Source: a virus. From it: DNA of 64,000 nucleotides. The stretch lies in the IMG/VR virus record IMGVR_UViG_3300044641_001047, positions 12,497 through 76,496 of that record; one strand, given 5' to 3'. A model generated the notes under the pieces. That model was not told where the DNA came from and did not search any database. It was given only the letters and a program-made list of their open reading frames with translations. Below are positions 1,879 to 47,008 of this stretch, piece by piece. The translations under genes and the position numbers were made by a program. Position 1 is the first letter of the stretch. Every line of letters begins with the position of its first letter.

Positions 1879-4800
1879 TTAAAGCATACATATTTGGGTG
1901 ATGTCCCCTTTTTTCTCTTCGTCCATTGTGTTATCTAAGAAGACATCTAACTTCTCTATTACAGAATCTATTGGCTTACTTTTTCCTACAACTCTTGGGT
2001 AAAGAGTAGCTCCCCCAACAAGGTGTTTTTTTTCGTTAGTAGTTTTACCTAACACCATATACTTTCCTATTTTTCCATCTTTTGATATACTACCAAGAAT
2101 ATAAACATCAGAGTCTGTTTTAGTTCTAACTACAAGAGCTGAAGGAATAGATGAGTATTCTTCTAAATTGATATCAATTTCTTTATCAGGCTTTCCTACT
2201 TCATCAAAGTTTTTACGTTGTAAAAGGTTACTTCCACCAGGTCTCATCTCCCCAAATATTCTTAGGAATCTAAGCATATCCTCCCCCTCAAAGTACCTAC
2301 CATTAGCCATTTTCATTGCCTGCTCATGAAGATAATCAGAAATGCTTATAGGTTCTAGATCTTCAGCGGTTCTATCCATAGGTTGGGTAAGGAATCTTGG
2401 GGGTAACAAGTCTGCAAAGTTAAATGGAGTTTGCTTAAATCCATTGGCAATAAGTGTATGCATTGCTAATTTATTACCTAAAGTCTTGATATCTTCAACT
2501 CCTTTCTTACGTTCAGCTATTTCTTTTTCTGTTGCCCCCTTTCTAAGTCTTGGTAAAAACTTCTCAGGTCTGTACAACATATCAGTAAGGTCATTGATGA
2601 TTCTATCCTTCTCATTTACTGTATACTGTTGCTGAGCATCAAACTGCAAGCTTCTAAAAGTCTTACTATTCTTGTTATCAGGATCTTCAGTAATCTTTAC
2701 AAAGAACTCATTACCTGCAAGCTTAGGGTATTTCTTTAAAATCATGGACATCTGCTTAAGCAGTGTTGACTTGTTTTTACTTGTACGATAGTTCTCATCA
2801 CTATACCCTTTACCAAAAAATGCTTTGAGTGGAGAGTCCTGCCTTGTAAGAATTGTGAATATTATTGCAGAGTTTATATCTCTGTGCTGATCACTTGTAA
2901 ATGTATTAGTAGGTGGAGCTGCTATCTTTCTCAAAGTATTCTTAAATCCTATGAACTCAGATGATAATGTCATTGGGAACAGTATTGATGCTACCCCTAA
3001 TGTTTCAGATATCATTTTATAGTAGCCTCTCTGTAATCCATATGGAGAATCTTCATCAAGAACTTGTTCGATTATACTCTCTGACATATTTCTTCCGTAT
3101 AGAGCTATAGGGGCATTGTCTACAAATCCATCTTTAGGGTTTGCAAACTTTTCCATTCTCTCCATATAGGCCTGCATAGCTTCTACTCTATTCAAACCAT
3201 CCATGCTATCAGGAGTAATGACCTTAAACATTTCTACAATCTGTCTTCCTCCAGAGTACATCTTCATAAAGTTTCTTAAAGCTACTGCAGGGGGTAGAGT
3301 AAAATTCATTATATCCTCTCTAGACATTGCAGTAGTCCTTTCAATTCTTTTATAATTATTTGCTATCTCAGTCTCTGGGTTTATACCGTGTAGAGCAGCA
3401 GCTTGACGATACCCATTGTTAACCATTGCAAGGTTATTGTTGTACTTATCAGACATTATGTTTACAAAATCTCTGATGATAGGCTGGTTAAGGAAGAAGT
3501 GCATTAACTCTGTATCACCGTAGAAATTAATCCATAGAACTTCTACAGGGAAAGTAACTTCATTATCATTGATGATGTAGTGGAATGGATTCTTAGAAGC
3601 ATCCACGGCAGCATTAAGATATCGAGAGATAATTTTATCTGTAAATTCCAAGTGATCGTATGCTGCAAATGGGTTATCTACTTGAGTAAGAAACTTAGTA
3701 TTTATTTTCTCTCCTGCTATCTTAACAGCAAATGAGTCAAATAGATTTATGTCTAAGTGTTGAGCTACATTCCTTCCTGCAAGAGCATTAGACCACTTAC
3801 CTCTCAGCTTGTTACCAAGAAGGTTTCTAACAGCACTGTTGGTATGGTACATACCCCCTGTAAACATTGGGATATCTTCAAGGTCAGGCATTTTTTCAAG
3901 GATACTGTCTTTGATATTACCAAGTGCAGCTGTGTCCAAAGGGCTAAGAGTTTCAGAGAAGTGAATAGGGCTACTGAGTACAGCCTCCATTGTATCAATG
4001 AAGATATTATTAAGCTGCTTCTCATTTAGTTTTGTAACCAATTCAGGATTGCTGGCAAGTTCTGCATAATTAGCAGATTCTTTAACCATAACCCCATCCT
4101 TCATGCTAACCTCAGGGAAAAGCAAAAACATTTTATCGACGTCAAAGTCAGATCCCATAAGCTTAACAAGCTGTGGTGGGACTACAATTGCTTTAGCATA
4201 ATTATCAGGTAGGACAGCTTTAATCTTTAGAATAACCATAGATGCCTTATCCTGGTTGGGGATACGATAACCAATAATTCTTCTAAGCTCTTCTGGGATG
4301 TTATCTAAATTGATCTCCCCTTCAGGTAAGTTAAACTTTCTAAGTACATCAGCTCTTATCATTATCTCTGCATGTGCCAATCTGACTCCATACTTTGTAT
4401 TGTTTGGATCATCTTCAATCTCCAAGAACTTAAGGGTTTCATTAGTCTCAAACCCACCAAGAGCTGCAGTCTGCACAGCCTCTGTCCCAGATAGCCTTTG
4501 CTTAAATACATTGTTGTTGTATATGCTAAGCAAAGCTGATTGAAACTTTTTACCAAATACAGGGTAGTCAAGTGGAATTGCAAATCTTGGGATAAGAGTA
4601 TCAGGATCTATAGTGATATCAAGAGCATCTAGATAGTTCTGGCTCATATCTCTTTCGATAGCCTGCTTCTCAAGAATGGTACGTATATTTTTAAGCAGTT
4701 CTAGCTTAGCATTTATAAAATCTTCTGAGCTCTTAAGGTGACTGATATTAACCTTACCCTTAACCTTATGCCCTTCTACAAGATTAGCAATTGCTTTACG

Positions 4801-7800
4801 GAATTTATCTAATCCAATCTCCTTATCTACACTTTCCATATCCCGTCGAATCTTCTCTTCGATGGCATTGTGGTAGATTTGAGTCATTACATCTCCGACA
4901 ACTTCTACAGAACCTTCTAGACCTGAGTTATAGTAATAGAGTCCAGCAGGATCTACGTTAGCAATAGAGTTTTTCTTAGCCTGTCTGTTAAAGATTACAT
5001 CACTTGTACCTTTAGGATCAGGTATTATCTGTGGGAATCTTAGTTTAGAAGAGTCTTGTTTAATGATTACAACGTCTTCCATCATACCAGGTCTGTACCT
5101 TTCTACCTCTTGTCCATTCTCATAAACAATCTCAGTATTCTTTGACAGATTGTAAGGCTCAGTCTTTAAACTCTTCTTAGTACTGAATGCATTAAATACA
5201 TGGACAGGCTGCAGATCATTTCTTCCTGCATAAGCCCCAGACAACTCCATACGTTGTCTTACATCATCCATGATTGGGAAGCTTCTTGTATAATCTTCTA
5301 CAAGTGGGAAGTAGGCATTCTTCTGAATCTCTGTCAGAAGTACTCCACCTACACTTTTAACATCTTCATAGTAAGGCTTAAGAGGTTTAATGATTACAGG
5401 ATCTCCAGCTTTCATTCCTTTAGGGACAAAGTTTTCTTGATATACAATACCTCCAATACTTCCTCTTTTCTTATATGCTCTGAATGCTTCTATCTCATTT
5501 TCTCCCCACTCTCCTAATCCTTCAGCTATGTATCGATACATATCAATACTGATAATAGCCAGACCATCGGTATCTTCAAAGGTGCCAGGGTTATAGCCTA
5601 GCATGAATGCTATGTCATCATCTGTATATGGGTCTCCAGTCTTAGGGTTAATTATAGATTTAAGTTTTCCCATAGTACGAGATACATACGATTTTGAAAA
5701 CTCTTCTATTGCTTTAGTTATATTACCCCTTGGGTCAAGGAATGTAGATTCATTGAATTCTGGGATCATACCATACTCTTCAACTCCGTCAGCTGGTTTT
5801 ACTCCGAGTGTACCTCTGATAGCAGTCAATGTACCTGGAGTTCCAAGTAGTCGTTGACGTTTAGTAAAGGCATCTAGAGAAGCAAAAGCAGCTCTGTTAC
5901 CACGAGTAAGCTTTATAATTTCTGCAGTCCCTACATCCTCATGAATAATAAACTCTTTTAGAAGACCTTTTATTGTAAGGACTTTCTTCATCACAGCAGT
6001 ATCTTCTTTACTCAGTCCTTCCAAAGCTTCTGCTTCATCAGCTTCCTTTAACTTTGAAAACCTTTTAGCTTCTTTAAGATCTACATCCCCATATCTTCCA
6101 GACTGTATAATCTTTTTTGCCATTACTTCTGCAGCTTGATCGTAGAATAGAGTAAGATTTGAAATCATCTGTGACATTAAATTCTCAAACTGCTTTAAAT
6201 CTCCAGTAGGAGTTTCACCAGCTTTTTTAACTTTAATGTAATCTTCTACATAGTCAGACATTTTCATCTGAACCCCATTAGATTTAATCATATAGTCCTG
6301 GACAATCCTTTCACCAGTCTTACTATTAATTCCATCTAATTGCATGTACTTACCTGACCCGTCTATACCAAGCATTTTACCTGTATGATAATCAATAGCT
6401 TTAGTAGCATTTGGATCATCAATAGTCCTTTGAGCTTGTCTGATTCTCAATAGGTCTTGAAGAATCATATCTCTAAATACCAGAGAATTAGTCTTATAGT
6501 CTAGTTTAGTGTTACCATGGCCTCTAAGTCTAGGCATAAGCATAAACTCTAGATCCTCACGGTCTGCTTGAGTTGGAATAGCACAATAGAAATAATCTTC
6601 TTTTCCATTATTTATAAAGTGATACAGCCTTGTAAATATGTGGTCAATAGTATTGAAGTTTCCATATGCTTCTCCCTCTGCCTCATCAGCTCTTTTGATT
6701 ACGTCTGCACTTACAGTACGTAGATCACTGAGATATTGAGGGTTTAGGATCATATGTCTATAGATCATACTATATCCATCCGTACCACTTTTATGATCAT
6801 GAATGTGAAATGGGTCAGTCTTTTGCAACTTAAGTGCATTCTCCCCATTCTTCTCTACATCGGTTTTAATATTAATAATTATGTCGTCAACAGGAGTTCT
6901 ATGTTGAATAGGCCATATAGCCTTCCCTTCTCCATTAACGTGGCTCTCTGCAGAGTTAGACATAAACAGTGGGGCCAAGCTTCCTAGGAACTTTACACCA
7001 GATTTCTCTGTATCAAAGAATGGTGTTATATCCTTTTTAGTGTCTCCAAAAAGAGGAACCCCTTTAGAGTCTGTCTCAACTTCAACAAAAGAACTAATTA
7101 TCGAGTAAAGACCAGAGTTTTCTACGATATAATCGAAGAGGCCTTTACCATTTAATTTTTCAAGACCCTTTTTCTTCTGCCTTACATACATACCTGCACT
7201 CATAAGACTCTGCAGGTTGTCAATTGTCTCATCTATATTGTAGTCATTCCCAAAGTTAATTCCTAAATTCCATAAAGTGTTAGCTAAAGCTATCACTGCT
7301 ACTGATGGCTCCCCTTCTTTACTAGGAAGAAAGTCTTTGTCCTGACTTGATCTCTTCTTACGAATCTCTGAAAGAGTTTTAAATGACTCTTTTACTGCTT
7401 CAAGTTTACTTTTATTTACAGTAAATGTAGATTTATCTTCTCCCTGTTCATTTTCTTCTACATTTTTATTGTATAGGGCTCTACTTTCAGAGTTTTCAAT
7501 TGCCTGCCCATCTACTTGTATTGCATTATTTCTCCATTTTCTTACAGCTTTCTGCTCTGTAGTAGTAACATTAGAGTCAAAGATTTTACTCTTCTTCCCC
7601 ATAATTACAATATGTGTCTTATTTACTGTAGTAGCAAAGTTGCTGAACAGTGCAGACTTCTCCTTAGGACTCATTCTTCTTATGCCACGAGCAATAGATT
7701 TATAGTCATCTCTATGCAGGGCAAAGTTTTCAAGCTTTATCATCATTTCCTCAAACGTCCCTGTATCTGACCACAGTTCTAATAGCTGCTTGTATACAAA

Positions 7801-9327
7801 ATTAGGATCATGGTATTTAGGACGATTGCTAAATATTGCATTCTTCTTTTCTGTTGTGATAACTTTCCCACCAGACTGCACTGTCTCTGTAATAGGGAAA
7901 CGACGTAGCATTATCTTGACAGCTTGAGATAATCTTTCTTTGTGAGGTCTCTCAATTCTTTGCTGATTATGCAAGTGCTCTTGAGCTTCTTTGGCATCCA
8001 GCTCTCTAATTTCATCGTCCCCTTCTTCAATGTCTACAAGGGTGACTTTTCCACTTTTGATTATATAGCCATAGTTTCTGAGGTTTCTTTCAACCTCATC
8101 TCTCCATGCTCTGGTTATTACGTTGCCTGTCTTAGCCTCATACTTACCCCTCCAGTTATCAATAACTTTGTAGATATACTCTCGAATCTGTCTTTGGTTC
8201 TTTGCAGCAGCCAGATCTTCTTCTGACATACCTTCTACAATTGGAGGGAAGTTGTTTAACTTAAGTCCAAACTTAGCTTTGTGCTCTTTAAAAACTTTAG
8301 CAGCCTCATCCATCTTATCTTTGAACTCAGGCCTCTTAGTATTCTCATAAGCAATTCTGTACTTATTGTATTCTTTTTCTAAAGTAAGTGCCTCTCTGAG
8401 TGGAGTGATATCTTTTCCCTTAGCTTCTCTTCCATCCTTGTATCTATAAAGATGGCTAAGCAATCCATGTACAATAGTTCCAGCAGTTTTATTATCCCCA
8501 AGTATGAGATTGATATCTGGGTTCTTCCAGTTTTGAATATCCTGAACCACCATATCAGAGATACCTTCTATGATCTCCTCTACAACTTCAGATGGCATTC
8601 CCTGTACGTGCATTTCAGGACTAATGTCACTCTTCATAAGCTCAGGGTTACGAAGAATCTTTCTCCCCAAAAGGTCGTAGTTGGTTTTGCTATTTCTAAG
8701 AAGAGAGTAAGTCTGCTTAAGAGTTACATTATCTGTAAGCATAGCTTTTATGAAATCAAATAGGTCACTAAACCACTGCTTAATCTTCTGTGGAATAGTC
8801 TTACTGCTTTCTCCCTCTGTAAGCATGTGCATTCTGAATCCTTCAGCCATCTTCTCCTCGAGTACAAGGTTGTAGGCTTCTTCATCAGATATATCGGGGA
8901 ACTGATTCTTTCTAGCTGTTACTTCTTCATCGGTTGGCTTACCAAATTCTCTCGATGTCTCAGCATATAGGAGAGATCTCTGAGCATCAGACAGCATTGT
9001 ACGGAACATCAAGTGATATCCCTCGTGGAACTCAGCACCAACCTCTGCAGCCTTCCATACATTAATTGCCCCGTTGGTTACGTGGCCATGCACAATTCTG
9101 TTACCAATTTGCTTTATGTAGTCGTAATAAAATATTTTATCCTCACCAAAGGTGTTTTTAACCCATGCAGTAGCTTTTTCTCTTCCTATACTTTCTGGAG
9201 TTTGGCCATAAAATTCAAGGGGCACTTCTCCGTTATATATACTCCATAGAGTATACGGATTTTCTACACCAGATTCTACCAGCTCTTTCCATTCAGGAAG
9301 ACTTTCAATAGGACAAGATATACCCAT
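1879..9327 (-). CDS. Virion-packaged DNA-dependent RNA polymerase (crAss-like), with N-terminal zincin-like domain
   Basis: 2482 aa. GYRIPNQ...MGSDFDVDKMF carries the catalytic DxDxD motif (4135-4149); TDG motif upstream; HEGYH (9013-9027) followed by EEKMAE. Confidence 0.92.
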   Translation of the reverse strand: MGISCPIESLPEWKELVESGVENPYTLWSIYNGEVPLEFYGQTPESIGREKATAWVKNTFGEDKIFYYDYIKQIGNRIVHGHVTNGAINVWKAAEVGAEFHEGYHLMFRTMLSDAQRSLLYAETSREFGKPTDEEVTARKNQFPDISDEEAYNLVLEEKMAEGFRMHMLTEGESSKTIPQKIKQWFSDLFDFIKAMLTDNVTLKQTYSLLRNSKTNYDLLGRKILRNPELMKSDISPEMHVQGMPSEVVEEIIEGISDMVVQDIQNWKNPDINLILGDNKTAGTIVHGLLSHLYRYKDGREAKGKDITPLREALTLEKEYNKYRIAYENTKRPEFKDKMDEAAKVFKEHKAKFGLKLNNFPPIVEGMSEEDLAAAKNQRQIREYIYKVIDNWRGKYEAKTGNVITRAWRDEVERNLRNYGYIIKSGKVTLVDIEEGDDEIRELDAKEAQEHLHNQQRIERPHKERLSQAVKIMLRRFPITETVQSGGKVITTEKKNAIFSNRPKYHDPNFVYKQLLELWSDTGTFEEMMIKLENFALHRDDYKSIARGIRRMSPKEKSALFSNFATTVNKTHIVIMGKKSKIFDSNVTTTEQKAVRKWRNNAIQVDGQAIENSESRALYNKNVEENEQGEDKSTFTVNKSKLEAVKESFKTLSEIRKKRSSQDKDFLPSKEGEPSVAVIALANTLWNLGINFGNDYNIDETIDNLQSLMSAGMYVRQKKKGLEKLNGKGLFDYIVENSGLYSIISSFVEVETDSKGVPLFGDTKKDITPFFDTEKSGVKFLGSLAPLFMSNSAESHVNGEGKAIWPIQHRTPVDDIIINIKTDVEKNGENALKLQKTDPFHIHDHKSGTDGYSMIYRHMILNPQYLSDLRTVSADVIKRADEAEGEAYGNFNTIDHIFTRLYHFINNGKEDYFYCAIPTQADREDLEFMLMPRLRGHGNTKLDYKTNSLVFRDMILQDLLRIRQAQRTIDDPNATKAIDYHTGKMLGIDGSGKYMQLDGINSKTGERIVQDYMIKSNGVQMKMSDYVEDYIKVKKAGETPTGDLKQFENLMSQMISNLTLFYDQAAEVMAKKIIQSGRYGDVDLKEAKRFSKLKEADEAEALEGLSKEDTAVMKKVLTIKGLLKEFIIHEDVGTAEIIKLTRGNRAAFASLDAFTKRQRLLGTPGTLTAIRGTLGVKPADGVEEYGMIPEFNESTFLDPRGNITKAIEEFSKSYVSRTMGKLKSIINPKTGDPYTDDDIAFMLGYNPGTFEDTDGLAIISIDMYRYIAEGLGEWGENEIEAFRAYKKRGSIGGIVYQENFVPKGMKAGDPVIIKPLKPYYEDVKSVGGVLLTEIQKNAYFPLVEDYTRSFPIMDDVRQRMELSGAYAGRNDLQPVHVFNAFSTKKSLKTEPYNLSKNTEIVYENGQEVERYRPGMMEDVVIIKQDSSKLRFPQIIPDPKGTSDVIFNRQAKKNSIANVDPAGLYYYNSGLEGSVEVVGDVMTQIYHNAIEEKIRRDMESVDKEIGLDKFRKAIANLVEGHKVKGKVNISHLKSSEDFINAKLELLKNIRTILEKQAIERDMSQNYLDALDITIDPDTLIPRFAIPLDYPVFGKKFQSALLSIYNNNVFKQRLSGTEAVQTAALGGFETNETLKFLEIEDDPNNTKYGVRLAHAEIMIRADVLRKFNLPEGEINLDNIPEELRRIIGYRIPNQDKASMVILKIKAVLPDNYAKAIVVPPQLVKLMGSDFDVDKMFLLFPEVSMKDGVMVKESANYAELASNPELVTKLNEKQLNNIFIDTMEAVLSSPIHFSETLSPLDTAALGNIKDSILEKMPDLEDIPMFTGGMYHTNSAVRNLLGNKLRGKWSNALAGRNVAQHLDINLFDSFAVKIAGEKINTKFLTQVDNPFAAYDHLEFTDKIISRYLNAAVDASKNPFHYIINDNEVTFPVEVLWINFYGDTELMHFFLNQPIIRDFVNIMSDKYNNNLAMVNNGYRQAAALHGINPETEIANNYKRIERTTAMSREDIMNFTLPPAVALRNFMKMYSGGRQIVEMFKVITPDSMDGLNRVEAMQAYMERMEKFANPKDGFVDNAPIALYGRNMSESIIEQVLDEDSPYGLQRGYYKMISETLGVASILFPMTLSSEFIGFKNTLRKIAAPPTNTFTSDQHRDINSAIIFTILTRQDSPLKAFFGKGYSDENYRTSKNKSTLLKQMSMILKKYPKLAGNEFFVKITEDPDNKNSKTFRSLQFDAQQQYTVNEKDRIINDLTDMLYRPEKFLPRLRKGATEKEIAERKKGVEDIKTLGNKLAMHTLIANGFKQTPFNFADLLPPRFLTQPMDRTAEDLEPISISDYLHEQAMKMANGRYFEGEDMLRFLRIFGEMRPGGSNLLQRKNFDEVGKPDKEIDINLEEYSSIPSALVVRTKTDSDVYILGSISKDGKIGKYMVLGKTTNEKKHLVGGATLYPRVVGKSKPIDSVIEKLDVFLDNTMDEEKKGDITQICML

Positions 9328-9329
9328 GT

Positions 9330-12300
9330 TTATTTTTTCTTTTTATTACAAAGTTTATTTACAACTTCCTCTTGTATTTTTTTAGCTTCTTTTTCATTAA
9401 TATCTATATCCAACATTTGTTTTACAAAAAATACAAAAGAGGCATTGTCCATAGCACCCATTTGAATTATTTGAGCTTTTAATTGAGCAGCACCATCACC
9501 CGATGGGCCATTTGAAGCTTTTGCAGATATTATAGATTTTGCAATATTATCCTTAGTAATCTCACCTCCGTCCTCAGTTGAAGTATCTTCATCCTCATCT
9601 TCATCTTCTTCAACTTCTCTTACCTTCTTAGTAATATTCTTTACAGGACTCTTCTTTTTAGAGTGGTTGGCAATAGCTGGATCGGAGCTTTTCTTAGCCT
9701 CTTTGTAGGCAAAGCTTACTTTTTTGTCTAGTACGTCTCCAAAATTAAGATTCAAAGTAAACTTCTTTTCTACAAAGTTACTAACTTTTAAGATAGTTCC
9801 ATCATCATCATACCTTAAAGGTATAAGTAAGGTACTTCCTTTTCTAACCATTGTAGATACATTGTTCTGTTTAGCATGCCCGTTGAACATATAAGCATAA
9901 ACACTTAGCTGTGCACCATGCTGGTCTCTCTTTGATCTACCATACTTAGTCTCCTCGTAGTTTTCAAGTCCAGAAGCTGTAAGAGTTTTTATATCATATA
10001 TACGGTACTCCCCTTTTCTATCCTTAGTAAGAATGTCAAAGGTTCCAGCTATGTTTGGGTAGTTAGGATCAGTGTTGTATACAACCATCTCTACAGCAAT
10101 TACTGTTTCTCCTCTTCCCCTTAGCATGCTTTGGATAGCTTTAGCTTGAGTTATAAGGTCGAGATAAGCTACTGAGGACACACCAGCTGGTTTAGTAGCA
10201 GGCTTACCCATAAGTAGGTTTTCAACTAAAGAGTGTACTAACTTACCAGCAGATGATGAGGCTTTCTGAGTTTCAGCAGATCCAGTAAATGGTTCTGATG
10301 TCATCTTGGATGCCCTTTCGTATTCCTCCCCATTGATAATGTAATGAGTTTCCTCCCCTGTCACGGGATCTTTTTTCATTTCTTCACGGTGTTGATTCTT
10401 CTTTATATCAGTAAGAATCTCTACCATAGGATCCCCTTTCTCCTCTTCTACCTCAGCAATAGTTCCACTAAGTCCTTGGCTTTTAATCTTTTTGCCAACA
10501 ACTACTTTTTCGTCATCTTCTTCTGTCTCTACAGTTTTAGTTCTTCTACGATTGATAGCCTTTTCCAGAGAGCTTGAATTGCTATCAGTATCTTCTTGTT
10601 CTTCTTCCTCTTCCTCCTCTATTCTCTTAGCTACTTCTCCAATTTCGTCATCATCTAGCAAAGCATTAGTAGAGTCAACTTGGTTGTCCTCCTCATCCAT
10701 ATCGGATTCGTTTGTATAATCCTCCTGCTCTTTAACTAAAGGTTCTTGTTTGGTAATCTTAGCTTTAGTTACTGTTCTAGAAGTTGTTGGCTTTTCATTT
10801 TCTGCAGCCTGTGCCTTGAATCCTTTTTCATCTGTAATCTCCCCAAAGTTCATCACCACATCAAAGTATGGGGAGAATGTTTTAGGGTTAAGATACACAT
10901 CAGAGCTAAGTATACCTGAGTGTCCCTGATCTTTTTCCATATCAGAGATTTCATCAGGGTGAGTTAAATAGTCTAAGTAAGAAGCATATACTAAGCCAGT
11001 TACTTTACTTTCGTATTCGGGGTTTTCAGTTAGAAGGTTAATATCTACTTGATACCTTCTCTTCATTATAGCCTCTTTAAATGCAGAAGCTATTGATCCC
11101 ATATGAGCAGTCCAGTCACTTCTTCCTTCTATTGGTTCAAAGTTTAGACCTCCTTCTTCACCTCTTACTGCTTCTACAAATTGGAATTTAACAAAGCTAT
11201 CAGGTTCAGTTAAAGCTAGAGCTAATTGGTCAGAGCTAATAGTAATATAAGTTTCTGCAGAAGGTAGCCAGAAGGTATAGCCTCTTGGAGCTTCTGGGTC
11301 AGACTTCTCACCATATACTTGTTCAAAAATTAGGTTCCTATTTGCATCATCAATAGCAGCTTCTGCAACTTCGTTGAAACCTACAATCTCTGCTACATCT
11401 CCAGCTCTATCATCTGTAATAGCTTCTACTACTGCATTGTATCCAACCTCAGTCATTTTCTTGGTAGTAGCCCTTATATAAGACAGATCTCCATTTGGGG
11501 TACGAACCAAGATTGCCACTTTACCTAAGTCAGCAGTTGACAATCGTGACAGCAAGTCACCTGGGATTGTTTCATCCTCTTTAAGAACATCCCCTCGGTT
11601 TGTCACCTCCCACTTTGGTTCTTTTTTGTAGGTTCTAGCAACAAGCAATGTAGGGGTATAAAGTATATTCCCATCTTCATCTACTGGGACAGGATCAAAG
11701 AAGAATACATTGCCATCCTCAGTCGCTGCATTAGCAATGTTCTGAGAGTCTACATATTTATTAGTAAGAATGGTTGTAGGAATTTTGCCGTTATCCCAAA
11801 GATTGTAGATAGTCTCCCTATCCATAGATCTGCTAGGATTAGAAGGGTTATAACCTTCAAGCAATCCAACTCTTTTAAATCCATCTTTTGTTCTAACTGC
11901 TACAAATATTGGAATGTTTTTCCAGTATTCTGACTCAGATACATTTGGATTATTTTTTACAAATTTCTGCCACCACTCAGTTTCTGGATTAACTTCAAAT
12001 CGTACTTCTGCACCATTTTCTACTATGTCAGAATCAGTCAATAGCTCAGGGAAAATTTGAATTGGAACCCATTTACCATTTTTTAATTCAAACTGTTGTC
12101 TTCCATCTTTGCCATTAGTTCCATAGTAAGAACTATTAGGAATCGGAGTACCATCCTCGTCAACAAGAATATTATCATAACCGTTAGCATACTCATGTTG
12201 GGTTTTAATTACTGCGATGCTACTCTGGTTCTCTGAATTTTTAACTTCTTCATGAACCGTTTTCTTTCTAAATTGAATGTTACCCTCATCCTCTTCTGGA

Positions 12301-15300
12301 TCTGAATCATCAGGCGTCTCTTCTTCTTCCGTTTCAAAACTTTTTGAATTGAATATATCTTGTGTTTCTCCAGTTTCTATGAATACTGGGTTGTCAATTA
12401 TTTCAGGGAGTAATGGTGCTACTTCATTTACGTCCACTGTTTCGCCTTCAGGTACTTGAACAGCTCCTTGATTCGTTGTTCCAGATCCTTGTTCTTGAGC
12501 AAGTTGCGAAGCTCTTTGGGAGTCTTGTACATCTTTGCTAGCTTGACTTGATTTTCTATATTCATACTCTTCGGTTAACTTGTTTTTATGACTCTGTTGA
12601 ATTTCTCTTTCAGCTCTTGCAACTTCTAAATCTTTTGTAAGCTTTTCAATCTTTTCTCCGTTTACAGGAGAAGCCATTCCTAGTTTTATACTTGCATCTA
12701 ATGCTGCAATTTGCTGCTCAAGCCCTATAATAGTTTCGTTTGCAAGATCGATTAAAAGTTCAGCTTCCCCAATTTTATTTTTAATTTCATTCTCAGCTTC
12801 CTCAGACATTTGACCACCTTGATCTTCCGTAGGTTCACTAACAGGAGACAACTGTGTTCTTTTAAAGTAATCTTTAGTTATGGCTTGGAATGCTTTAAGA
12901 GTTGTAGAATACATTGCTCTTGCTCTCTGCACATCTGGATCTTGGTTCATTTCGGCCATGGTCTTACCCTGCCTCATGAACTTCTCCTTAGCCATATTAT
13001 AAACAGAAAGGATGTCAAGAAGATGAGTTCTATGACTATCCATCAACTTCTGTAAAGCTTTATCAGTTATAACATTAGGATCGTACTTAGCCTTACTTCT
13101 TAATGCCTCAGATAAATTTTGCAATGCATTAAGTCTAGATTGAATCTGCTTTCTAAGTTCTACTTCACTAAGTCCTAAGCTTTCTATAGTTCCTTGAGAC
13201 TGATAAGCCATCAGGATTATCTCTGCAAGTTCTTTTGCAACAGTATCTTTAAACTCAACTGTTTGGTTTTGCTCATTGTGCAGTACTACTTGAGATACTA
13301 TAATAGAACCTGTAAGAGCACTAGCGGGTTTATATTCTGTTATACCCTCTGTCTTAATATCTTCTAGCATCTGTGGATAAGATGCAGCATGCCTATCTAT
13401 TGTCTCATCGGATACATTTGCTCTGTTAACTCCTGCTGCGATATCTGCTTTTATTCTTTGTTTAGCTAATTCAGCATTTAAAGGCATTAACTTATACTGA
13501 ATATTAGCACCAGGTATTGCTTTTTTAACAGCCTCTATAAACGGTCTTCTTTTTTCTTTAGTTAAATTGGTGGTATCAAATACCACCTGTTTACCATTCT
13601 TCACAGCTTCTACTGCTCTTTTAGCAGCTTCAATGTAAATTTCTTTATCTTTAGATTTATCATTTATATCTCCTGTAAACTCAGCTCTCATATCATCAGG
13701 AGAAATAACTACTAAATTTTCTTGAGGTAAACTTTTTATAAAAGTAGATTTCCCACTTCCAGAAGTTCCTATAGGTAAAATAATATCAGCTTTAGTAGTC
13801 GTAGAGGTGCTGCTTGTTTTAGGTTTAGAAGAAGTAATCTTTTTACCTAATTGTTGTTCTACATGCTTTCCAATTATGTCAACAAATTCATTTGCTAACT
13901 GATTAGTAAGTGCAGCATATCTTTTTTCTACAGCTACAGTTCTTCTATCAGCAGAAGATATATCAGTAGTATTTATTTTACTTAACTCTCCTGCTAAAGG
14001 TCTTAATGCATCTAGTCTTTTTTTATCCTCTTCACTAAGAAAATCAAACTCATTAAGATTTAAGTCTGCTAATACAATTAAATTATCAGCAACTTTTCCC
14101 ATTGAAGCTTTAAAAGCATTTAATCTACCTTTAGGCCTAGCTCCTTCATAAAAATCAGATGGCAATACTACTTTAGCATTTCCATAGCCATCTAATCTTT
14201 CATTAAGTCCTTCTATAGGTGTTTTTGTGTTATCATCTGCAGCAGGAGTTTCAGACTGCATGTCCCATTCATAGCCATACCTAATAGCATCTACTGGGTT
14301 TTCATTAAGGTTCTGATATACTGTCCCGTTAACTCTTATTGTTCTTCCATCGGTACTAAGTAATGCAAAGCTATTTTCATAAACCTTCCCACTTAAATCT
14401 GGATCTGCTTTCTCATCAGCTTCTTCAGAGAATCCTTTCTTAAGTGCATCTTCTGCTTCTTTCTTAGCAGCTGCTTCAGCAGGAGTTAACTCTCCTTCTT
14501 TTATATCTTTCTGCTCAAGACTTTCATTTTTCTTAGCTTCAAGAACAGCAAGTAGTGCTGCAGCTTTAGCAGGAGATTCTTCTTCAATACTTTCAATATC
14601 TGCAACTAACTCTTCAAGAACCTCCAGTGGGATGTCTTGATAGTCTTTCATGTACTTATCCTCTATAGCCTTAAGCTCTTTATATTTCTTTCTAACCTTA
14701 GCTTTCATTTCAGGACTAAGGTTTTCATGATCTATAAGTTCATCAAGTTCTCTAGTAGAATCTGCATTGTCAACAATTGAGTCAGCTTCTTTATTTGACT
14801 TTGCTACTTTAGCTCGTTGCTCAGCAGCTTGTTTAGCAGCTAGAACAATTTCTCTTTTTTCTGGAGATTTTATCAGCTCGTCAAATGCAGTAGATGCAAG
14901 TTCTCTTGTATATATTCCTGTAATAAAGTCAGCAAGAGCCTTATCAAAGTCCATCTTCTGCAGCTTATCTAAGGTTTCAGATTCTTCTACTGCTGTCCTA
15001 AGAGCTCCAGTTAAACTTTCATTCTCTTTAATATTCTTCTTCTTTGCAGCCTCTTCCGTGGTTGGGTCAGGCTTTGGTTCCCCTTCTTTCTTCTCTTGCT
15101 CCTCTACATCACTAACACTTACGTCAACCAAAGATTTAGGGAGAACTAGATTACCCTGTGCATCTGCTGTTATTTGGTTTCTTTTTATTAGAGTTACAAG
15201 TTTATTTCTGTCAAAATTTTTAAGAGCTGGAGATAGAGATACTAGTTTTTCATATGCATCGTTAATCTCCTCATCTCTAGTCTCCATACTAATCATGTTA

Positions 15301-17270
15301 GTAAGGAGTATATTTTTAAGTCTTTGATTGTATAGATCTTGGGCAGCTTTTTGAATTTTCTGCTCTTTGTTCATGGTTAGTTTAGCAAGTCCAGATTGAT
15401 TAGGGCTCATAAATTGAATAATGTTATCCAATCTTTTCCCCATATCTGAATACTTCTTCATCTCTCCTTTCCACTCTTCTACAATCCCTGACTGAGTTTT
15501 ACCTCCTGATTGCTCCAGTAATGGCTTAGACTTATCATAGCCATTTAAATCCATGAAGTCAGCTTCAGGCATTTTGGCCATGTCATCTAGTTTCTCATAA
15601 GCTAGATCTATAGCATCGAGATTATCAAACATGATTGCATGCTGAGCCATGAAGTTTTTACGTAGCTCGTTTGCAAGCTTGTAGTTACCAAGATCAGTAG
15701 CAGCTTTTAGAGCAGCAGAGAATTGTGCTAATTCCTTTTTCTGCTCAAAGCTCTTTCTCATGTTTAAGAAAGTCTCAGAGTTTGTAATGGCCAACAGCTT
15801 TTCTGTATTAGCTTTAACCATTGCTCTTTGTTTAGCAGCTGTTCCAAATGATGTGCTGGTTGCACCCATACCTCCACCAATAAGAGCACCTAGCAGCATG
15901 CTCTCTATTCCATCTGCAGTTCCAAAGGTTTTAGATAGCCCTCTTACTGCAGCTCCTGTCATATCTTCTACCCCAGAATCAAATTTATTCTTGTAGTAAT
16001 CTATTGCAGTCTCTCCAATCATGAACTGAGCACCTTCTTGGAAAGCCTCTGTTAAAGAATTCTCATAGATAGGGGCTGTATATTTTTGAGCTCTATTTAA
16101 AAATCTTCCAACTCCCGTTGTTGGAAGAGATACTATTCTTTTACCTGCTTGGTCTAAAACAGTTTCTGCTGTAGCTCTTTCCCCAATTTTAACTCCTCTT
16201 GCAGCATTGCCAAACATTAAAAGATTGCTAGTCATAAGAACAGGCATATTCCACCCAAAAGTAAAGTTCTCTACAGCTCTAGCTTCTTCATTTATCCTCT
16301 CTCTATCACTAGCAGGCATATCCTCTAATGACATTCCTGGGTTATTCTCAAGCCACTCAGACTCTCTTTCCTGAATAAATTGTTTAGACTTTTCTCTAGC
16401 TTCTACAGAAGACTCAGCAAGAGACATCATGGCCCCTACTTCTAGAGTTTTAGCAGCATTTAAGGTTCTAGCTATATTCCCATATTTAGCAATATCAGCG
16501 GTAAGTTTTGTACCAGTAGCTATCATTTTAGAGGCAGCATATATATTCTTCATAGCCTCCCCTGTAGACACAAGTTTACCTACTTGTCCTGCTCTTCCTG
16601 CTGCAGCCATAGCTTTACCAGCTAAATTAACACCTCTTCCTAATAGCCCAGCTCCACCACTCATCCATGCAGTTGCTAATGATCCTAGTGAATATCCTAA
16701 TCCATTGGCAAATTTATCTGTCCAAAAGTTAGCACTTCCTAAGTTATCCAGCATGCTACGGTCTGGATCTAACTCTGCTTTAGTGTAGTAGTGTGGAAGG
16801 TTTTCACTCATCCATTCATTTGCACTATCTACACTTCTTCCTACAGGATTATTTGCATATGTACCTCCAGCAAGCATAGAGCCTATTCCCCCGATAATAC
16901 CTATGGTATTTTCTGCTACTGCCCCTACTATAGTGGCCCCCATTTTAAGAGCACCGTATCCTAACTTTTGACCAATGCCTTGGTTCTCTGCTCGAATCTC
17001 ATTCCAGTCTGCATATGGACTAAGAGGGACTTTATAGCTAGCATAGTTAGCTATTGGATCAGTATAGACATTTGTAAGATCTATAGATCGTGCTTGTAAG
17101 TCTAGACCAGAAAGTTCGTATGGAGATTCCTTAGCCTTAGGGGCAAGTGGTTCACCTACAAATTCTGAGAAGCTACTTAGAGCATCTTTTGGCTTAGATA
17201 ATTCTTTTACTGGTAGTCCAGTAAACTTACTAAAACTTTCTAATGGTGCACTTTCTGTTGGTTCTGCCAT
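9330..17270 (-). CDS. Giant ejected (cargo) protein with N-terminal hydrophobic Gly/Ala helices, inserted P-loop kinase domain and C-terminal PD-(D/E)xK nuclease domain
   Basis: 2646 aa. GTSGSGKST...SPDDMR...VVFDTTNL (13330-13790); GKLVH...IAGTFD...IYDIKT...HGAQLSVY (~9750-10350). Position matches the crAss ejection cluster. Confidence 0.85.
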   Translation of the reverse strand: MAEPTESAPLESFSKFTGLPVKELSKPKDALSSFSEFVGEPLAPKAKESPYELSGLDLQARSIDLTNVYTDPIANYASYKVPLSPYADWNEIRAENQGIGQKLGYGALKMGATIVGAVAENTIGIIGGIGSMLAGGTYANNPVGRSVDSANEWMSENLPHYYTKAELDPDRSMLDNLGSANFWTDKFANGLGYSLGSLATAWMSGGAGLLGRGVNLAGKAMAAAGRAGQVGKLVSTGEAMKNIYAASKMIATGTKLTADIAKYGNIARTLNAAKTLEVGAMMSLAESSVEAREKSKQFIQERESEWLENNPGMSLEDMPASDRERINEEARAVENFTFGWNMPVLMTSNLLMFGNAARGVKIGERATAETVLDQAGKRIVSLPTTGVGRFLNRAQKYTAPIYENSLTEAFQEGAQFMIGETAIDYYKNKFDSGVEDMTGAAVRGLSKTFGTADGIESMLLGALIGGGMGATSTSFGTAAKQRAMVKANTEKLLAITNSETFLNMRKSFEQKKELAQFSAALKAATDLGNYKLANELRKNFMAQHAIMFDNLDAIDLAYEKLDDMAKMPEADFMDLNGYDKSKPLLEQSGGKTQSGIVEEWKGEMKKYSDMGKRLDNIIQFMSPNQSGLAKLTMNKEQKIQKAAQDLYNQRLKNILLTNMISMETRDEEINDAYEKLVSLSPALKNFDRNKLVTLIKRNQITADAQGNLVLPKSLVDVSVSDVEEQEKKEGEPKPDPTTEEAAKKKNIKENESLTGALRTAVEESETLDKLQKMDFDKALADFITGIYTRELASTAFDELIKSPEKREIVLAAKQAAEQRAKVAKSNKEADSIVDNADSTRELDELIDHENLSPEMKAKVRKKYKELKAIEDKYMKDYQDIPLEVLEELVADIESIEEESPAKAAALLAVLEAKKNESLEQKDIKEGELTPAEAAAKKEAEDALKKGFSEEADEKADPDLSGKVYENSFALLSTDGRTIRVNGTVYQNLNENPVDAIRYGYEWDMQSETPAADDNTKTPIEGLNERLDGYGNAKVVLPSDFYEGARPKGRLNAFKASMGKVADNLIVLADLNLNEFDFLSEEDKKRLDALRPLAGELSKINTTDISSADRRTVAVEKRYAALTNQLANEFVDIIGKHVEQQLGKKITSSKPKTSSTSTTTKADIILPIGTSGSGKSTFIKSLPQENLVVISPDDMRAEFTGDINDKSKDKEIYIEAAKRAVEAVKNGKQVVFDTTNLTKEKRRPFIEAVKKAIPGANIQYKLMPLNAELAKQRIKADIAAGVNRANVSDETIDRHAASYPQMLEDIKTEGITEYKPASALTGSIIVSQVVLHNEQNQTVEFKDTVAKELAEIILMAYQSQGTIESLGLSEVELRKQIQSRLNALQNLSEALRSKAKYDPNVITDKALQKLMDSHRTHLLDILSVYNMAKEKFMRQGKTMAEMNQDPDVQRARAMYSTTLKAFQAITKDYFKRTQLSPVSEPTEDQGGQMSEEAENEIKNKIGEAELLIDLANETIIGLEQQIAALDASIKLGMASPVNGEKIEKLTKDLEVARAEREIQQSHKNKLTEEYEYRKSSQASKDVQDSQRASQLAQEQGSGTTNQGAVQVPEGETVDVNEVAPLLPEIIDNPVFIETGETQDIFNSKSFETEEEETPDDSDPEEDEGNIQFRKKTVHEEVKNSENQSSIAVIKTQHEYANGYDNILVDEDGTPIPNSSYYGTNGKDGRQQFELKNGKWVPIQIFPELLTDSDIVENGAEVRFEVNPETEWWQKFVKNNPNVSESEYWKNIPIFVAVRTKDGFKRVGLLEGYNPSNPSRSMDRETIYNLWDNGKIPTTILTNKYVDSQNIANAATEDGNVFFFDPVPVDEDGNILYTPTLLVARTYKKEPKWEVTNRGDVLKEDETIPGDLLSRLSTADLGKVAILVRTPNGDLSYIRATTKKMTEVGYNAVVEAITDDRAGDVAEIVGFNEVAEAAIDDANRNLIFEQVYGEKSDPEAPRGYTFWLPSAETYITISSDQLALALTEPDSFVKFQFVEAVRGEEGGLNFEPIEGRSDWTAHMGSIASAFKEAIMKRRYQVDINLLTENPEYESKVTGLVYASYLDYLTHPDEISDMEKDQGHSGILSSDVYLNPKTFSPYFDVVMNFGEITDEKGFKAQAAENEKPTTSRTVTKAKITKQEPLVKEQEDYTNESDMDEEDNQVDSTNALLDDDEIGEVAKRIEEEEEEEQEDTDSNSSSLEKAINRRRTKTVETEEDDEKVVVGKKIKSQGLSGTIAEVEEEKGDPMVEILTDIKKNQHREEMKKDPVTGEETHYIINGEEYERASKMTSEPFTGSAETQKASSSAGKLVHSLVENLLMGKPATKPAGVSSVAYLDLITQAKAIQSMLRGRGETVIAVEMVVYNTDPNYPNIAGTFDILTKDRKGEYRIYDIKTLTASGLENYEETKYGRSKRDQHGAQLSVYAYMFNGHAKQNNVSTMVRKGSTLLIPLRYDDDGTILKVSNFVEKKFTLNLNFGDVLDKKVSFAYKEAKKSSDPAIANHSKKKSPVKNITKKVREVEEDEDEDEDTSTEDGGEITKDNIAKSIISAKASNGPSGDGAAQLKAQIIQMGAMDNASFVFFVKQMLDIDINEKEAKKIQEEVVNKLCNKKKK
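12428..12565 (-). CDS. Putative overprinted 45-aa basic helical protein nested in the 2646-aa gene
   Basis: Alternative frame MNIENQVKLAKMYKTPKELRNLLKNKDLEQRIKELFKYLKAKQWT*; A-rich upstream sequence with A at -3; the host frame here is an S/Q-rich linker. Confidence 0.45.
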   Translation of the reverse strand: MNIENQVKLAKMYKTPKELRNLLKNKDLEQRIKELFKYLKAKQWT

Positions 17271-31924: not shown

Positions 31925-32224
31925 TTAATTACTTATTTTATTAGTCATTTCTTCCTTAGCTTTCACCAGGTCGATACATTTTTCGTATTCTTCGTTCTGT
32001 TCAAAATAACTTATCATAAGGTCTGCAACATTCAAAAAGTCCTCGAGCCTGCTAGGGTTAAATGGAAATATAACCACAAGCTTCTCGGCAGTTAATTCAG
32101 CTAATGTTCTTTTAGCTGTGATTAACTTGTATCCATTGTTGTAACAAGCATCTATTGATGCTACTTTATCGAAGAACTCTTCCATATCCTGGTCGAATTC
32201 TTCGTCGTATTCATCTTGACTCAT
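31925..32224 (-). CDS. Hypothetical protein (C-terminal UVR-like helix pair)
   Basis: 99 aa; YFEQNEEYEKCIDL; ATGA-coupled to the phosphoesterase gene. Confidence 0.6.
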   Translation of the reverse strand: MSQDEYDEEFDQDMEEFFDKVASIDACYNNGYKLITAKRTLAELTAEKLVVIFPFNPSRLEDFLNVADLMISYFEQNEEYEKCIDLVKAKEEMTNKISN

Positions 32225-33372
32225 TTTACAATAGTTTGTAGATAACCCTCCAGCCCATTAGTTTTACTCCAGATATAAGCCTGGCCTGTTCTAAGAGCTG
32301 AGTATCCCATTGTTCTGTGCCAGTCATCATTAGCACAGATGGAGGGGATAAATCTTACTTTAATTCCACGGTATTCATTAACCATTTCCTTGTGTAAGTG
32401 CCCACAGTGCACCTCTCTAACTGAGCATCTGGCAAACATCTCTGGTTGCTCAGTTGCCATAATCAGTGGCATTTCACTTGGCTTCTCCTTATCCCCGTGA
32501 GTATACATTATCATGTTTACCCCGTACTCTACATACTTCCTACTTTCCATGCTGTTATCTACAACGACATTTTTATCGTTACGATACCATCCTTTGATGA
32601 CATCCCCAGCATAGAACATTCTTTCAAAATCGTGATTCCCTGATATAACTACTACATGAACTGGAGCTTTAGTCTTTAGAAAGTCTATAGCTTTAGTCAT
32701 CAAGTTGCAATATCCCTGGAAGCTTTCTCTCCATCCTATTGCATCATGCTGAAAAGTTCCTTTGGTTGTAGTCAACCTCAGTCCTTCAGAATTCATTCCG
32801 TCATTCCCGATAGGAAGAATGAATTTCTCAATATTCAATCCTTTTGCTTTATCTACTAAGTTGTAGACTGTGCTCATGAATTGTTCTTCAACTGCCTGCA
32901 TGGATAGCTCCGTTAGCTTACCATAGTGTATATCAGGAAGAGAAATCTCGTAGGCTACTCCTTCATCTCCTGCTTGGAATGGGGCTGACTGCTTGTATAC
33001 AGTTGGACTAAATATAGCAGCAAACTCCTCAATCTCCATCTTTATCTCAGCCATTGAGATTTTATCACCCTTTGTAACTACAGAGAACCGTTGTTCTCCT
33101 CCCATTGTTTGCCAGAATTTAACAGATGATACATCATCTCTGTTAATTCCGTTTTCTAACAGATAGCTTTCAAACTCAGTTATTACACTGTCGTTTTCGT
33201 TAGAGTTATCAGTGAGGCCAAGTCTAGCTTGCTTAAGCAGTTTCTTAGCCTCCCTGATTGCCTCTAATGCTATCTTTTCTTCAACATCGAACGTGGTAGA
33301 TACTCTGCTAGGGCCACTTTTAAGGTAACCTGGTTTTAGCTTTAGTATGTCTACCAGTTCTTTTAAACTCAT
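32221..33372 (-). CDS. Calcineurin-like metallophosphoesterase
   Basis: 383 aa with all five motifs: PDIHYG, GNDG, SGNHD, THGD, GHLH. Confidence 0.85.
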   Translation of the reverse strand: MSLKELVDILKLKPGYLKSGPSRVSTTFDVEEKIALEAIREAKKLLKQARLGLTDNSNENDSVITEFESYLLENGINRDDVSSVKFWQTMGGEQRFSVVTKGDKISMAEIKMEIEEFAAIFSPTVYKQSAPFQAGDEGVAYEISLPDIHYGKLTELSMQAVEEQFMSTVYNLVDKAKGLNIEKFILPIGNDGMNSEGLRLTTTKGTFQHDAIGWRESFQGYCNLMTKAIDFLKTKAPVHVVVISGNHDFERMFYAGDVIKGWYRNDKNVVVDNSMESRKYVEYGVNMIMYTHGDKEKPSEMPLIMATEQPEMFARCSVREVHCGHLHKEMVNEYRGIKVRFIPSICANDDWHRTMGYSALRTGQAYIWSKTNGLEGYLQTIVK

Positions 33373-46601: not shown

Positions 46602-47008
46602 TAAGACAAGAATTTAAGTTTATATTTAGCAGAGTTAAGAGCAGACTTGATGTTATCTAAATCGTTAACTATCTCAGAGAACTCACATCCGTCTTGAACT
46701 CTAGTTATTTTAGTATGCAATTGATCAATATAATTAATTGCATCTTTTACTGACCTCATAGTTGGGGCAGATATATTATCTGGGTAATCTGGAATTGTAC
46801 CAGTTGCTCCTTGATATCCTTCGGCTACTGCATCTGCAAGTCCTGGGAGTGCATCATAAAGTTCGTTAAGTGCTTTGTGTGCAGCATAAGAACCTGCCCC
46901 TGTTACTGTTAGATGTAAAACGTGGAACTTAGTTGCAGCATCCATCAATTCTACGGCTAATGCTGGGATAGATTCTTTTTTAGATTTCATCTTTTCTATA
47001 TAGCTCAT
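46601..47008 (-). CDS. Ferritin/Dps-like four-helix protein (DUF5856-like)
   Basis: 135 aa; FHVLHL...SYAAHKALNELYD...DAVAEGYQG...KYKLKFL. Confidence 0.7.
   Translation of the reverse strand: MSYIEKMKSKKESIPALAVELMDAATKFHVLHLTVTGAGSYAAHKALNELYDALPGLADAVAEGYQGATGTIPDYPDNISAPTMRSVKDAINYIDQLHTKITRVQDGCEFSEIVNDLDNIKSALNSAKYKLKFLS

Follow-up and report, generated by a model that had tools for sequence, protein, structure and literature searches.

A polynucleotide kinase-type domain as an apparently mobile in-frame cassette within a giant, putatively virion-packaged protein of a crAss-like phage

We analyzed a 64,000-nucleotide (nt) stretch of viral DNA (the window), which corresponds to positions 12497-76496 of IMG/VR record IMGVR_UViG_3300044641_001047, a 76,496-bp virus contig that is 92% complete according to CheckV. 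The window is the late/structural part of a crAss-like phage, and one of its giant genes, P0001, encodes a protein of 2646 amino acids (aa) in the middle of which lies a domain with the sequence and predicted fold features of the polynucleotide 5'-kinase family. Judged by its distribution among giant proteins of other phages, this domain is a mobile in-frame cassette, and the best single account of its role, which we consider somewhat probable, is that of a delivered polynucleotide 5'-kinase that heals or resets ends as infection begins. The gene is located as follows.

9330..17270, minus strand: giant carrier gene P0001, 2646 aa (open reading frame (ORF) list and translation)

A sequence-only reading of this DNA had quoted a set of kinase motifs and assigned them to a T4 Pnk-type (AAA_33) kinase. 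All of the quoted motifs were found in frame in the ORF at 9330-17270 (minus strand), within a strong Pfam match. The corresponding features are given below, where CthPnkp is the Pnkp of C. thermocellum and E is the expectation value.

13377..13781, minus strand: Pfam AAA_33 core with polynucleotide-kinase fold, P0001 aa 1164-1298 (E 5.1e-16, 59.7 bits against a cutoff of 27)
13743..13772, minus strand: P-loop IGTSGSGKST, aa 1167-1176 (K1174, S1175), invariant in 18 cassette copies and aligned to the CthPnkp P-loop
13686..13703, minus strand: SPDDMR, aa 1190-1195, in-frame motif
13686..13700, minus strand: PDDMR, with D1192 and R1195 as the D-x-x-R pair (D and R invariant in 18 copies, middle positions variable)
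13563..13586, minus strand: VVFDTTNL, aa 1229-1236, in-frame motif
13443..13463, minus strand: KQRIKAD, aa 1270-1276, in-frame motif
13419..13463, minus strand: lid-like basic segment KQRIKADIAAGVNRA (K1270, R1272, K1274 and R1283, invariant in 18 copies)

The domain also matched PHROG 505, "polynucleotide kinase" (E 2.3e-13), and its best NCBIfam match was the kinase part of bacterial Pnkp (E 9.4e-11). The GxxxxGK[ST] P-loop pattern of polynucleotide 5'-kinases is present at aa 1168-1176 (GTSGSGKST), and D1192 and R1195 were aligned to the Asp and Arg of SSDFCR in CthPnkp, which form the D-x-x-R pair characteristic of polynucleotide kinases. We take the equivalent residues, D38/R41 of CthPnkp and D35/R38 of T4 Pnk (Shuman-lab work), to be the general base and a substrate- or phosphate-contacting Arg. 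Further residues invariant over the 18 copies were D1232, T1234, N1235, D1288, R1293 and H1294. Sequence and profile searches of PDB retrieved the C. thermocellum Pnkp kinase (E 1e-7 to 1e-6), Pnkp1, PSTK, mammalian PNKP and T4 Pnk; the top row of the profile search, PDB 3jqh, was rejected as a repeat artefact composed of seven stretches of ~4 bits each. When the AlphaFold2 (AF2) model of the domain (predicted local distance difference test (pLDDT) 83.7) was compared with PDB by Foldseek, ranks 1-8 were occupied by CthPnkp (4gp6/4gp7/4jst, template modeling (TM) score 0.71-0.74), Pnkp1 and mammalian PNKP, PSTK was also matched, and T4 Pnk appeared at rank 16. PseT and many proteins annotated as polynucleotide kinases were among the viral fold matches. 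Sequence, profile and fold matches were thus nearly all to polynucleotide or tRNA kinases, in agreement with the family proposed by the sequence-only reading. The cassette is under purifying selection, with ratios of nonsynonymous to synonymous substitution rates (dN/dS) of 0.07-0.26 for the other kinase copies against that of P0001.

These results bear on whether the substrate could be a small molecule. A small-molecule or nucleotide kinase, either zeta-toxin-like and acting on a cell-wall precursor in a way that eases entry or directed at a nucleotide or defence signal, would be consistent with the weak overlap of several cassette copies with Pfam Zeta_toxin (E 2e-5 to 1.6e-6), with the presence of adenylate and adenosine 5'-phosphosulfate (APS) kinases lower in the fold list, and with the zeta-like kinases found in polyvalent proteins (Iyer et al. 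2017, PMC5512222). However, P0001 itself gave no Pfam Zeta_toxin match at E<=1, no zeta toxin was retrieved from PDB at E<=1 with the cassette profile, and the Zeta_toxin matches of the other copies were borderline and weaker than their AAA_33 matches. Apart from the artefact row, the significant PDB matches were polynucleotide or tRNA kinases. In addition, at ~155 aa the domain resembles the CthPnkp kinase in its compactness, its D-x-x-R is aligned to the catalytic pair of polynucleotide kinases, and the combination that marks zeta toxin kinases, a Zeta_toxin match above threshold together with an extension binding UDP-N-acetylglucosamine (UNAG), was not found. We therefore regard a small-molecule substrate as unlikely.

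The position of the domain within P0001 was defined by comparison with backbone homologues. A whole-protein search with P0001 yielded 31 such homologues (P0002-P0032), whose flank alignments ended at query positions ~996-1020 and restarted at ~1321-1327, and the block between was never covered. The resulting borders are close to 13320-14250, where the sequence-only reading had placed an inserted block.

13293..14234, minus strand: inserted block, P0001 aa 1013-1326 (borders set by orthologue flank alignments)

At this slot the block was present in none of the 31 backbone homologues, which carry instead 0-154 aa of other, unrelated sequence; the domain is thus not a universally conserved structural part of the protein, the finding that would have spoken against an insertion. 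P0002 is the closest case, being 96.7% identical to P0001 in the N-terminal flank and 91.1% identical in the C-terminal flank, with an unrelated 105-aa segment in the slot. The slot is essentially empty in P0012, P0015 and P0019, and in the remaining homologues it holds 6-154 aa representing several unrelated small modules. In the distant homologue P0028 (4526 aa, with a 32% identical N-terminal region), the kinase is located ~700 aa further along. The block had also been described as AT-richer and bounded by T/S/P linkers. A sliding-window check confirmed a real though modest shift in GC content (0.33 in the insert vs 0.38 in the rest of the gene), and the GC content at third codon positions (GC3) was 0.133 vs 0.261, the lowest among same-size windows of the gene. 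T/S/P-rich linkers (…QSETPAADDNTKTP…, …SSKPKTSSTSTTTK… and …EYKPASALTGS…) lie at the edges of the block and also split it internally. Searched at the nucleotide level against GenBank phages, the insert gave no match, and no exact direct repeat of at least 12 nt was detected at the borders 13293, 13800 or 14234.

Recent acquisition of the kinase block by P0001, as the sequence-only reading had supposed, is strongly supported by these comparisons, because the block is absent at the slot in all backbone homologues, its GC3 is deviant, and it shares 92.9% DNA identity with a copy in another phage, although the polymerases of the two phages are only 21-26% identical. That copy, in loci L003/L004, delimits the cassette as a DNA unit.

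13304..13795, minus strand: kinase cassette as DNA unit, aa 1159-1323 (92.9% DNA identity to L003/L004 over exactly that span)

The cassette ends are sharp in the L003/L004 alignment, and DNA identity to 25 other loci was 76-88%. At the protein level, the kinase part (aa ~1160-1313) was 65-93% identical to segments of 30 other giant ORFs. Scans of the viral collection identified 31 distinct loci, and in all of them except L027 the cassette lies within a very long open frame (up to >6300 aa), at varying positions. After masking of the cassette, the carriers (n=31, including P0001) fell into 27 backbone clusters, and no other kinase carrier resembled P0001 outside the cassette at E<=1e-10. The carrier backbones are only ~20-25% identical to proteins of the phage encoding P0001; the L003 carrier shares 23% identity with P0001 in a short N-terminal stretch only, and the 21-26% identity mentioned above is that between the virion RNA polymerases (vRNAPs) of the two phages. 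Many kinase carriers contain the vRNAP core itself, so that the cassette is fused into the vRNAP polypeptide. A profile search of 1.84 billion representatives returned 128 proteins at E<=1e-30; among the 150 best matches listed, 129 were new representatives, and 51 of these were at least 1000 aa long. A more distant tier of this search consisted of stand-alone proteins of ~150-160 aa, and scans of the viral collection with two short cassette forms returned giant-ORF copies only.

Several further observations were made on individual cassette copies. At L027:9926-10619 (plus strand), the cassette has 87.8% DNA identity, and a frameshift splits the kinase into ORFs of 106 aa and 130 aa, with the surrounding giant gene in pieces; this may reflect either decay or an assembly error. 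A NADAR-like motif noticed by eye after the kinase in L027 was discarded, as Pfam gave no support for the tested ORF. Nested inserts of ~100-840 aa occur inside the kinase lid (after KQRIKAD…) in L024, L025, L026 (near 10350-10790), P0046, P0048 and P0049; for those of L024-L026, Pfam assigned no family, and there was no ASCH match at E<=0.01. The GC content of the cassette is 0.26-0.35 in L011, L018, L019 and L021, vs 0.21-0.40 for the carrier loci. Next to GC-rich carriers the cassette has the lower GC content, and next to very AT-rich ones the higher, a pattern consistent with ongoing exchange.

Sequence motifs were also seen at the slot itself. In orthologues P0002, P0005, P0006 and P0021-P0024 (slot aa ~990-1120), the modules often start with KADIE(R/K)RRQE and finish with AELAALE(G), and AELAALE is also found after the kinase in P0035, P0033 and P0028. 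These motifs may be connector helices. As general junction markers they were rejected, since they flank slot modules in several orthologues and are not general in kinase carriers.

From these data we propose the following course of events. The kinase cassette recently recombined, beside a separately mobile helical module, into the hypervariable slot of a giant cargo protein resembling gp47 of phage crAss001. The carrier, encoded beside the vRNAP and made late, would be packaged and expelled with the DNA, which would place the kinase in the host cell ahead of any phage gene expression. There, its most likely activity would be ATP- or GTP-dependent phosphorylation of RNA 5'-OH ends, and possibly of DNA. 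This would heal the cuts made by defence nucleases of the host, or reset the ends of nucleic acids in some other way, and the kinase would be one of the tools in a polyvalent, pre-loaded kit. The data show the identity of the domain, its insertion, the mobility of the cassette and purifying selection, and the virion delivery, the substrate and the counter-defence role are predictions. Domains carried together with the kinase in other giants lend circumstantial support to a role in nucleic-acid repair or counter-defence. A NUDIX domain lies directly upstream of the kinase in P0036, and an AlkB-like oxygenase is present in the kinase giant P0046. The 4072-aa ORF at L021:6932-19147 (plus strand) combines an SF1 helicase (aa 275-680), the kinase (aa 1028-1163), the head of a CCA-adding/poly(A) polymerase (aa 1838-1973) and an HD domain (aa 2078-2211), a combination that looks like a tRNA/RNA 3'-end repair enzyme placed in a virion-type giant protein. 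ART-PolyVal and cpYpsA SLOG domains were also detected in kinase-bearing giants, and NADAR, described below, belongs to the same group of accessory domains.

Several points weigh against a delivered end-healing kinase. No 3'-phosphatase was found: P0001 has no Pfam phosphatase domain and thus lacks the fused HAD/PNK3P or metallophosphoesterase 3'-phosphatase of bifunctional end-healing enzymes, and PNK3P is absent from the 92%-complete genome. A Metallophos match was obtained at only 15.6 bits, below the cutoff, at 32461-32694 (minus strand) in a 383-aa late-protein ORF (32221-33372), and is probably not significant. The Rnl2-type RNA ligase (PF09414) had no match in the same genome. With neither a phosphatase nor an Rnl2-type ligase found, this genome does not seem to encode the full heal-and-seal pathway of the T4 type, and breaks that end in a 2',3'-cyclic phosphate are beyond the reach of a 5'-kinase acting alone. 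Some cassette copies give weak Zeta_toxin matches (22-28 bits), and the frameshift in L027 means that the cassette is dispensable in some lineages. The equivalence of the lid to that of CthPnkp is presumptive, as the PDB alignments span the first ~115 residues and stop before or within the lid, in which R1272 and R1283 are invariant. Finally, the presence of P0001 in virions and its ejection are deduced from virion proteomics of relatives. Of the two roles suggested by the sequence-only reading, RNA end-healing is accordingly left plausible but lacks a phosphatase or Rnl2-type ligase partner, and nothing was found that supports a small-molecule substrate, as would be needed for inactivation of a defence nucleotide.

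The kinase-only nature of the module, with no phosphatase or Rnl2-type ligase found, would also suit a true 5'-OH polynucleotide kinase that is offensive or serves the needs of the phage itself. Such an enzyme would block RtcB-type religation, feed host RNA to 5'-phosphate-dependent decay, or prepare phage DNA or RNA ends. The NUDIX domain upstream of the kinase in P0036 fits this explanation, since in our view an RppH-like NUDIX would also give 5'-monophosphate ends, and P0001 itself carries a PD-(D/E)XK nuclease domain. However, the co-carried AlkB-like, CCA-adding/HD and (in homologues) NADAR domains favour repair or counter-defence over attack, and we consider this explanation improbable, on a par with a small-molecule substrate.

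The delivered end-healing kinase further presupposes that its carrier enters the host. The downstream neighbour of P0001 is relevant in this respect.

1879..9327, minus strand: vRNAP-type gene, 2482 aa, downstream neighbour of P0001 (DFDVD motif scan)

DFDVD is located at aa 1727 of the 2482-aa protein (4135-4149), and the virion RNA polymerase of crAss phages has DFDxD as its catalytic motif (bioRxiv 10.1101/2020.03.07.982082). The end of P0001 and the start of the vRNAP gene are separated by 2 nt. Residues 99-456 of P0001 resemble the crAss001-type "putative RNA-polymerase subunit" (gp47 position; tblastn E 8e-11), and a "structural protein" encoded by Cellulophaga phages phi17:2 (E 2e-14) and phi4:1 is similar to the N-terminal part of P0001 (aa ~90-546). 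The distant virion homologues share 24.7-27.4% identity over 36-46% of the N-terminal 1000 aa. In crAss001, gp47 was detected in virions and its ejection was proposed (PMC10172136). The proteins adjacent to the vRNAP of phi14:2 are virion components and are fused with the polymerase in some phages, and the phi14:2 vRNAP must enter the host with the DNA (bioRxiv 10.1101/2020.03.07.982082). From these relationships we infer that the P0001 carrier would enter the virion and leave it together with the DNA. Across the cassette family as a whole, delivery is likely because the cassette is often fused into vRNAP-containing polypeptides. The ejected virion protein of the sequence-only reading therefore gains support from the gp47 homology and from the vRNAP neighbour in a late operon, and it remains a prediction from homology and context, the proteomics coming from relatives.

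A carrier that is not delivered, or a kinase active only late in the producing cell, for example during assembly, would accord with virion presence being known for distant homologues only (24.7-27.4% identity). We consider this quite unlikely, as P0001 belongs to the operon of late structural genes and is separated from the vRNAP gene by 2 nt, the cassette is fused into the vRNAP polypeptide in many phages, and the phi14:2 counterpart is translocated into the host. A domain without catalysis, which would merely bind nucleotide or act as a structural spacer, is very improbable, for although the cassette is dispensable (absent in orthologues and frameshifted in L027), its catalytic-type residues are invariant in 18 copies on different backbones and its dN/dS is 0.07-0.26.

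Compared with known enzymes, the P0001 kinase is similar to Pnkp (C. thermocellum), Pnkp1 (Capnocytophaga) and T4 Pnk in its P-loop fold, in the aligned P-loop Lys/Ser and Asp-x-x-Arg, and in its size of ~155-170 aa. However, identity to them is only ~25%, neither a 3'-phosphatase nor a ligase domain is fused to it, and the genome yielded no partner of the Hen1 or Rnl kind. Moreover, Pnkp and T4 Pnk are free early or cellular enzymes, whereas the P0001 kinase is an internal cassette of a 2646-aa late virion-type protein. T4 Pnk is expressed early and heals tRNA cut by a defence system; if the P0001 kinase is delivered with the genome, this paradigm would be extended to an enzyme present at entry.

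The carrier is comparable to the polyvalent proteins, which are multi-enzyme proteins encoded among virion genes, predicted to be injected and proposed to show cassette-like variability (Iyer et al. 2017, PMC5512222). Like these, P0001 is giant, lies among late virion genes and contains disparate enzyme domains (AAA_33 kinase and PDDEXK_1 nuclease); its relatives carry ART-PolyVal, NUDIX, helicase and other domains, and host entry is predicted. Unlike these, its backbone belongs to a protein family of the crAss transcription block. The text of Iyer et al. 2017 mentions neither polynucleotide kinase nor crAss nor NADAR, and the kinases described there are protein-kinase-like or zeta-like (PMC5512222). 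With crAss001 gp47 and the vRNAP-adjacent proteins of phi14:2, P0001 shares a homologous N-terminal region, a similar size, a DFDxD vRNAP neighbour and late gene status; unlike P0001, they have no reported kinase insert, and the similarity is confined to ~360-460 aa at 25-27% identity. Yutin et al. 2021 described the transcription block as "several large, multidomain proteins", and the word "kinase" occurs there once, in a figure legend, for a deoxynucleotide monophosphate kinase. A literature search for a polynucleotide kinase of Crassvirales or crAss-like phages found nothing relevant. The theme of multi-enzyme injected proteins is therefore known, and a packaged kinase of this type is not described.

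Polymorphic toxin systems offer another comparison, as they too have near-alike modules on very divergent backbones with sharp module borders. Unlike the toxins, the modules studied here lie within the protein and do not form its C-terminal tip, they have the look of enzymes for repair or counter-defence, and they were seen with no immunity genes, spare cassette arrays or repeat junction. We tentatively suggest, as an idea somewhat less likely than not to be right, that crAss-like phages share a pool of in-frame cassettes (polynucleotide kinase-type kinase, helical module, NUDIX, AlkB-like, CCA-adding/HD, NADAR and nuclease) that are shuffled by recombination among giants packed in virions and ejected with the DNA. 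Each phage would thereby obtain a customised, pre-loaded kit for nucleic-acid repair and against defence, comparable on the phage side to polymorphic toxin systems, and the kinase would be the first packaged polynucleotide kinase, acting before phage transcription. Delivery of the kinase with the genome would also show that the poorly understood giants of this phage order, the most abundant one in the gut and the environment, are carriers of exchangeable counter-defence enzymes. P0002, with its near-identical backbone and different 105-aa slot module, provides a clean natural comparison, and the sharply defined ends of the cassette could help in designing cargo proteins that bear chosen domains.

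The second domain of the inserted block, estimated at ~130 aa by the sequence-only reading, proved to be a real module of ~140 aa that is conserved elsewhere.

13821..14252, minus strand: module 2, aa ~1007-1150 (~140 aa), upstream of the kinase (conserved in other giant ORFs)

Module 2 is 63-85% identical at the protein level to modules in P0045, P0047, P0050-P0052 and L028-L036, and its DNA identity to L032 is 86%. Its carriers form a set of their own, in which no kinase follows; by this distribution, module 2 moves separately from the kinase, and the block comprises two cassettes that are mobile independently of each other. Over 9 copies, column identity averages 72%, and dN/dS is 0.2-0.42, indicating weaker constraint than in the kinase. 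Module 2 had no match in Pfam, PHROG, NCBIfam or the ESM Atlas. Its AF2 model is weak (pLDDT 53) and contains three long helices; the module is probably helical and may be an adaptor or spacer. At 13783-13795, the module 2 tract (shared with L031) and the kinase tract (shared with L003) overlap by ~12 nt coding for TKAD, a possible microhomology junction.

The remaining features place P0001 in its genomic context. It shares its strand and gene block with the terminase, portal, major head protein and virion structural proteins.

49299-51266, minus strand: terminase (strong PHROG match)
47005-49212, minus strand: portal (strong PHROG match)
40800-42224, minus strand: major head protein (strong PHROG match)
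9861..10121, minus strand: PD-(D/E)XK nuclease domain, P0001 aa ~2384-2470 (Pfam PDDEXK_1, E 2.1e-5, 25 bits against a cutoff of 22)

The head genes are followed by a series of very large genes, encoding proteins of 1955, 999, 763, 2646 and 2482 aa, and beyond the 2482-aa gene one more ORF crosses the window edge, with 622 aa inside the window. The layout of P0001 comprises the gp47-like N-terminal region, the variable slot, a central region and the C-terminal nuclease. The nuclease family (PF12705) is also present in orthologues P0021, P0022 and P0024. In backbone homologues P0030 and P0031, a NADAR domain (aa ~2062-2177) stands near the place of the PD-(D/E)XK domain of P0001, in its stead, which suggests a second variable slot in the backbone. 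Zincin-like motifs were seen in the neighbouring proteins, with HEGYH at aa 101 of the 2482-aa vRNAP-type protein and HEFSH at aa 238 of the next protein downstream.

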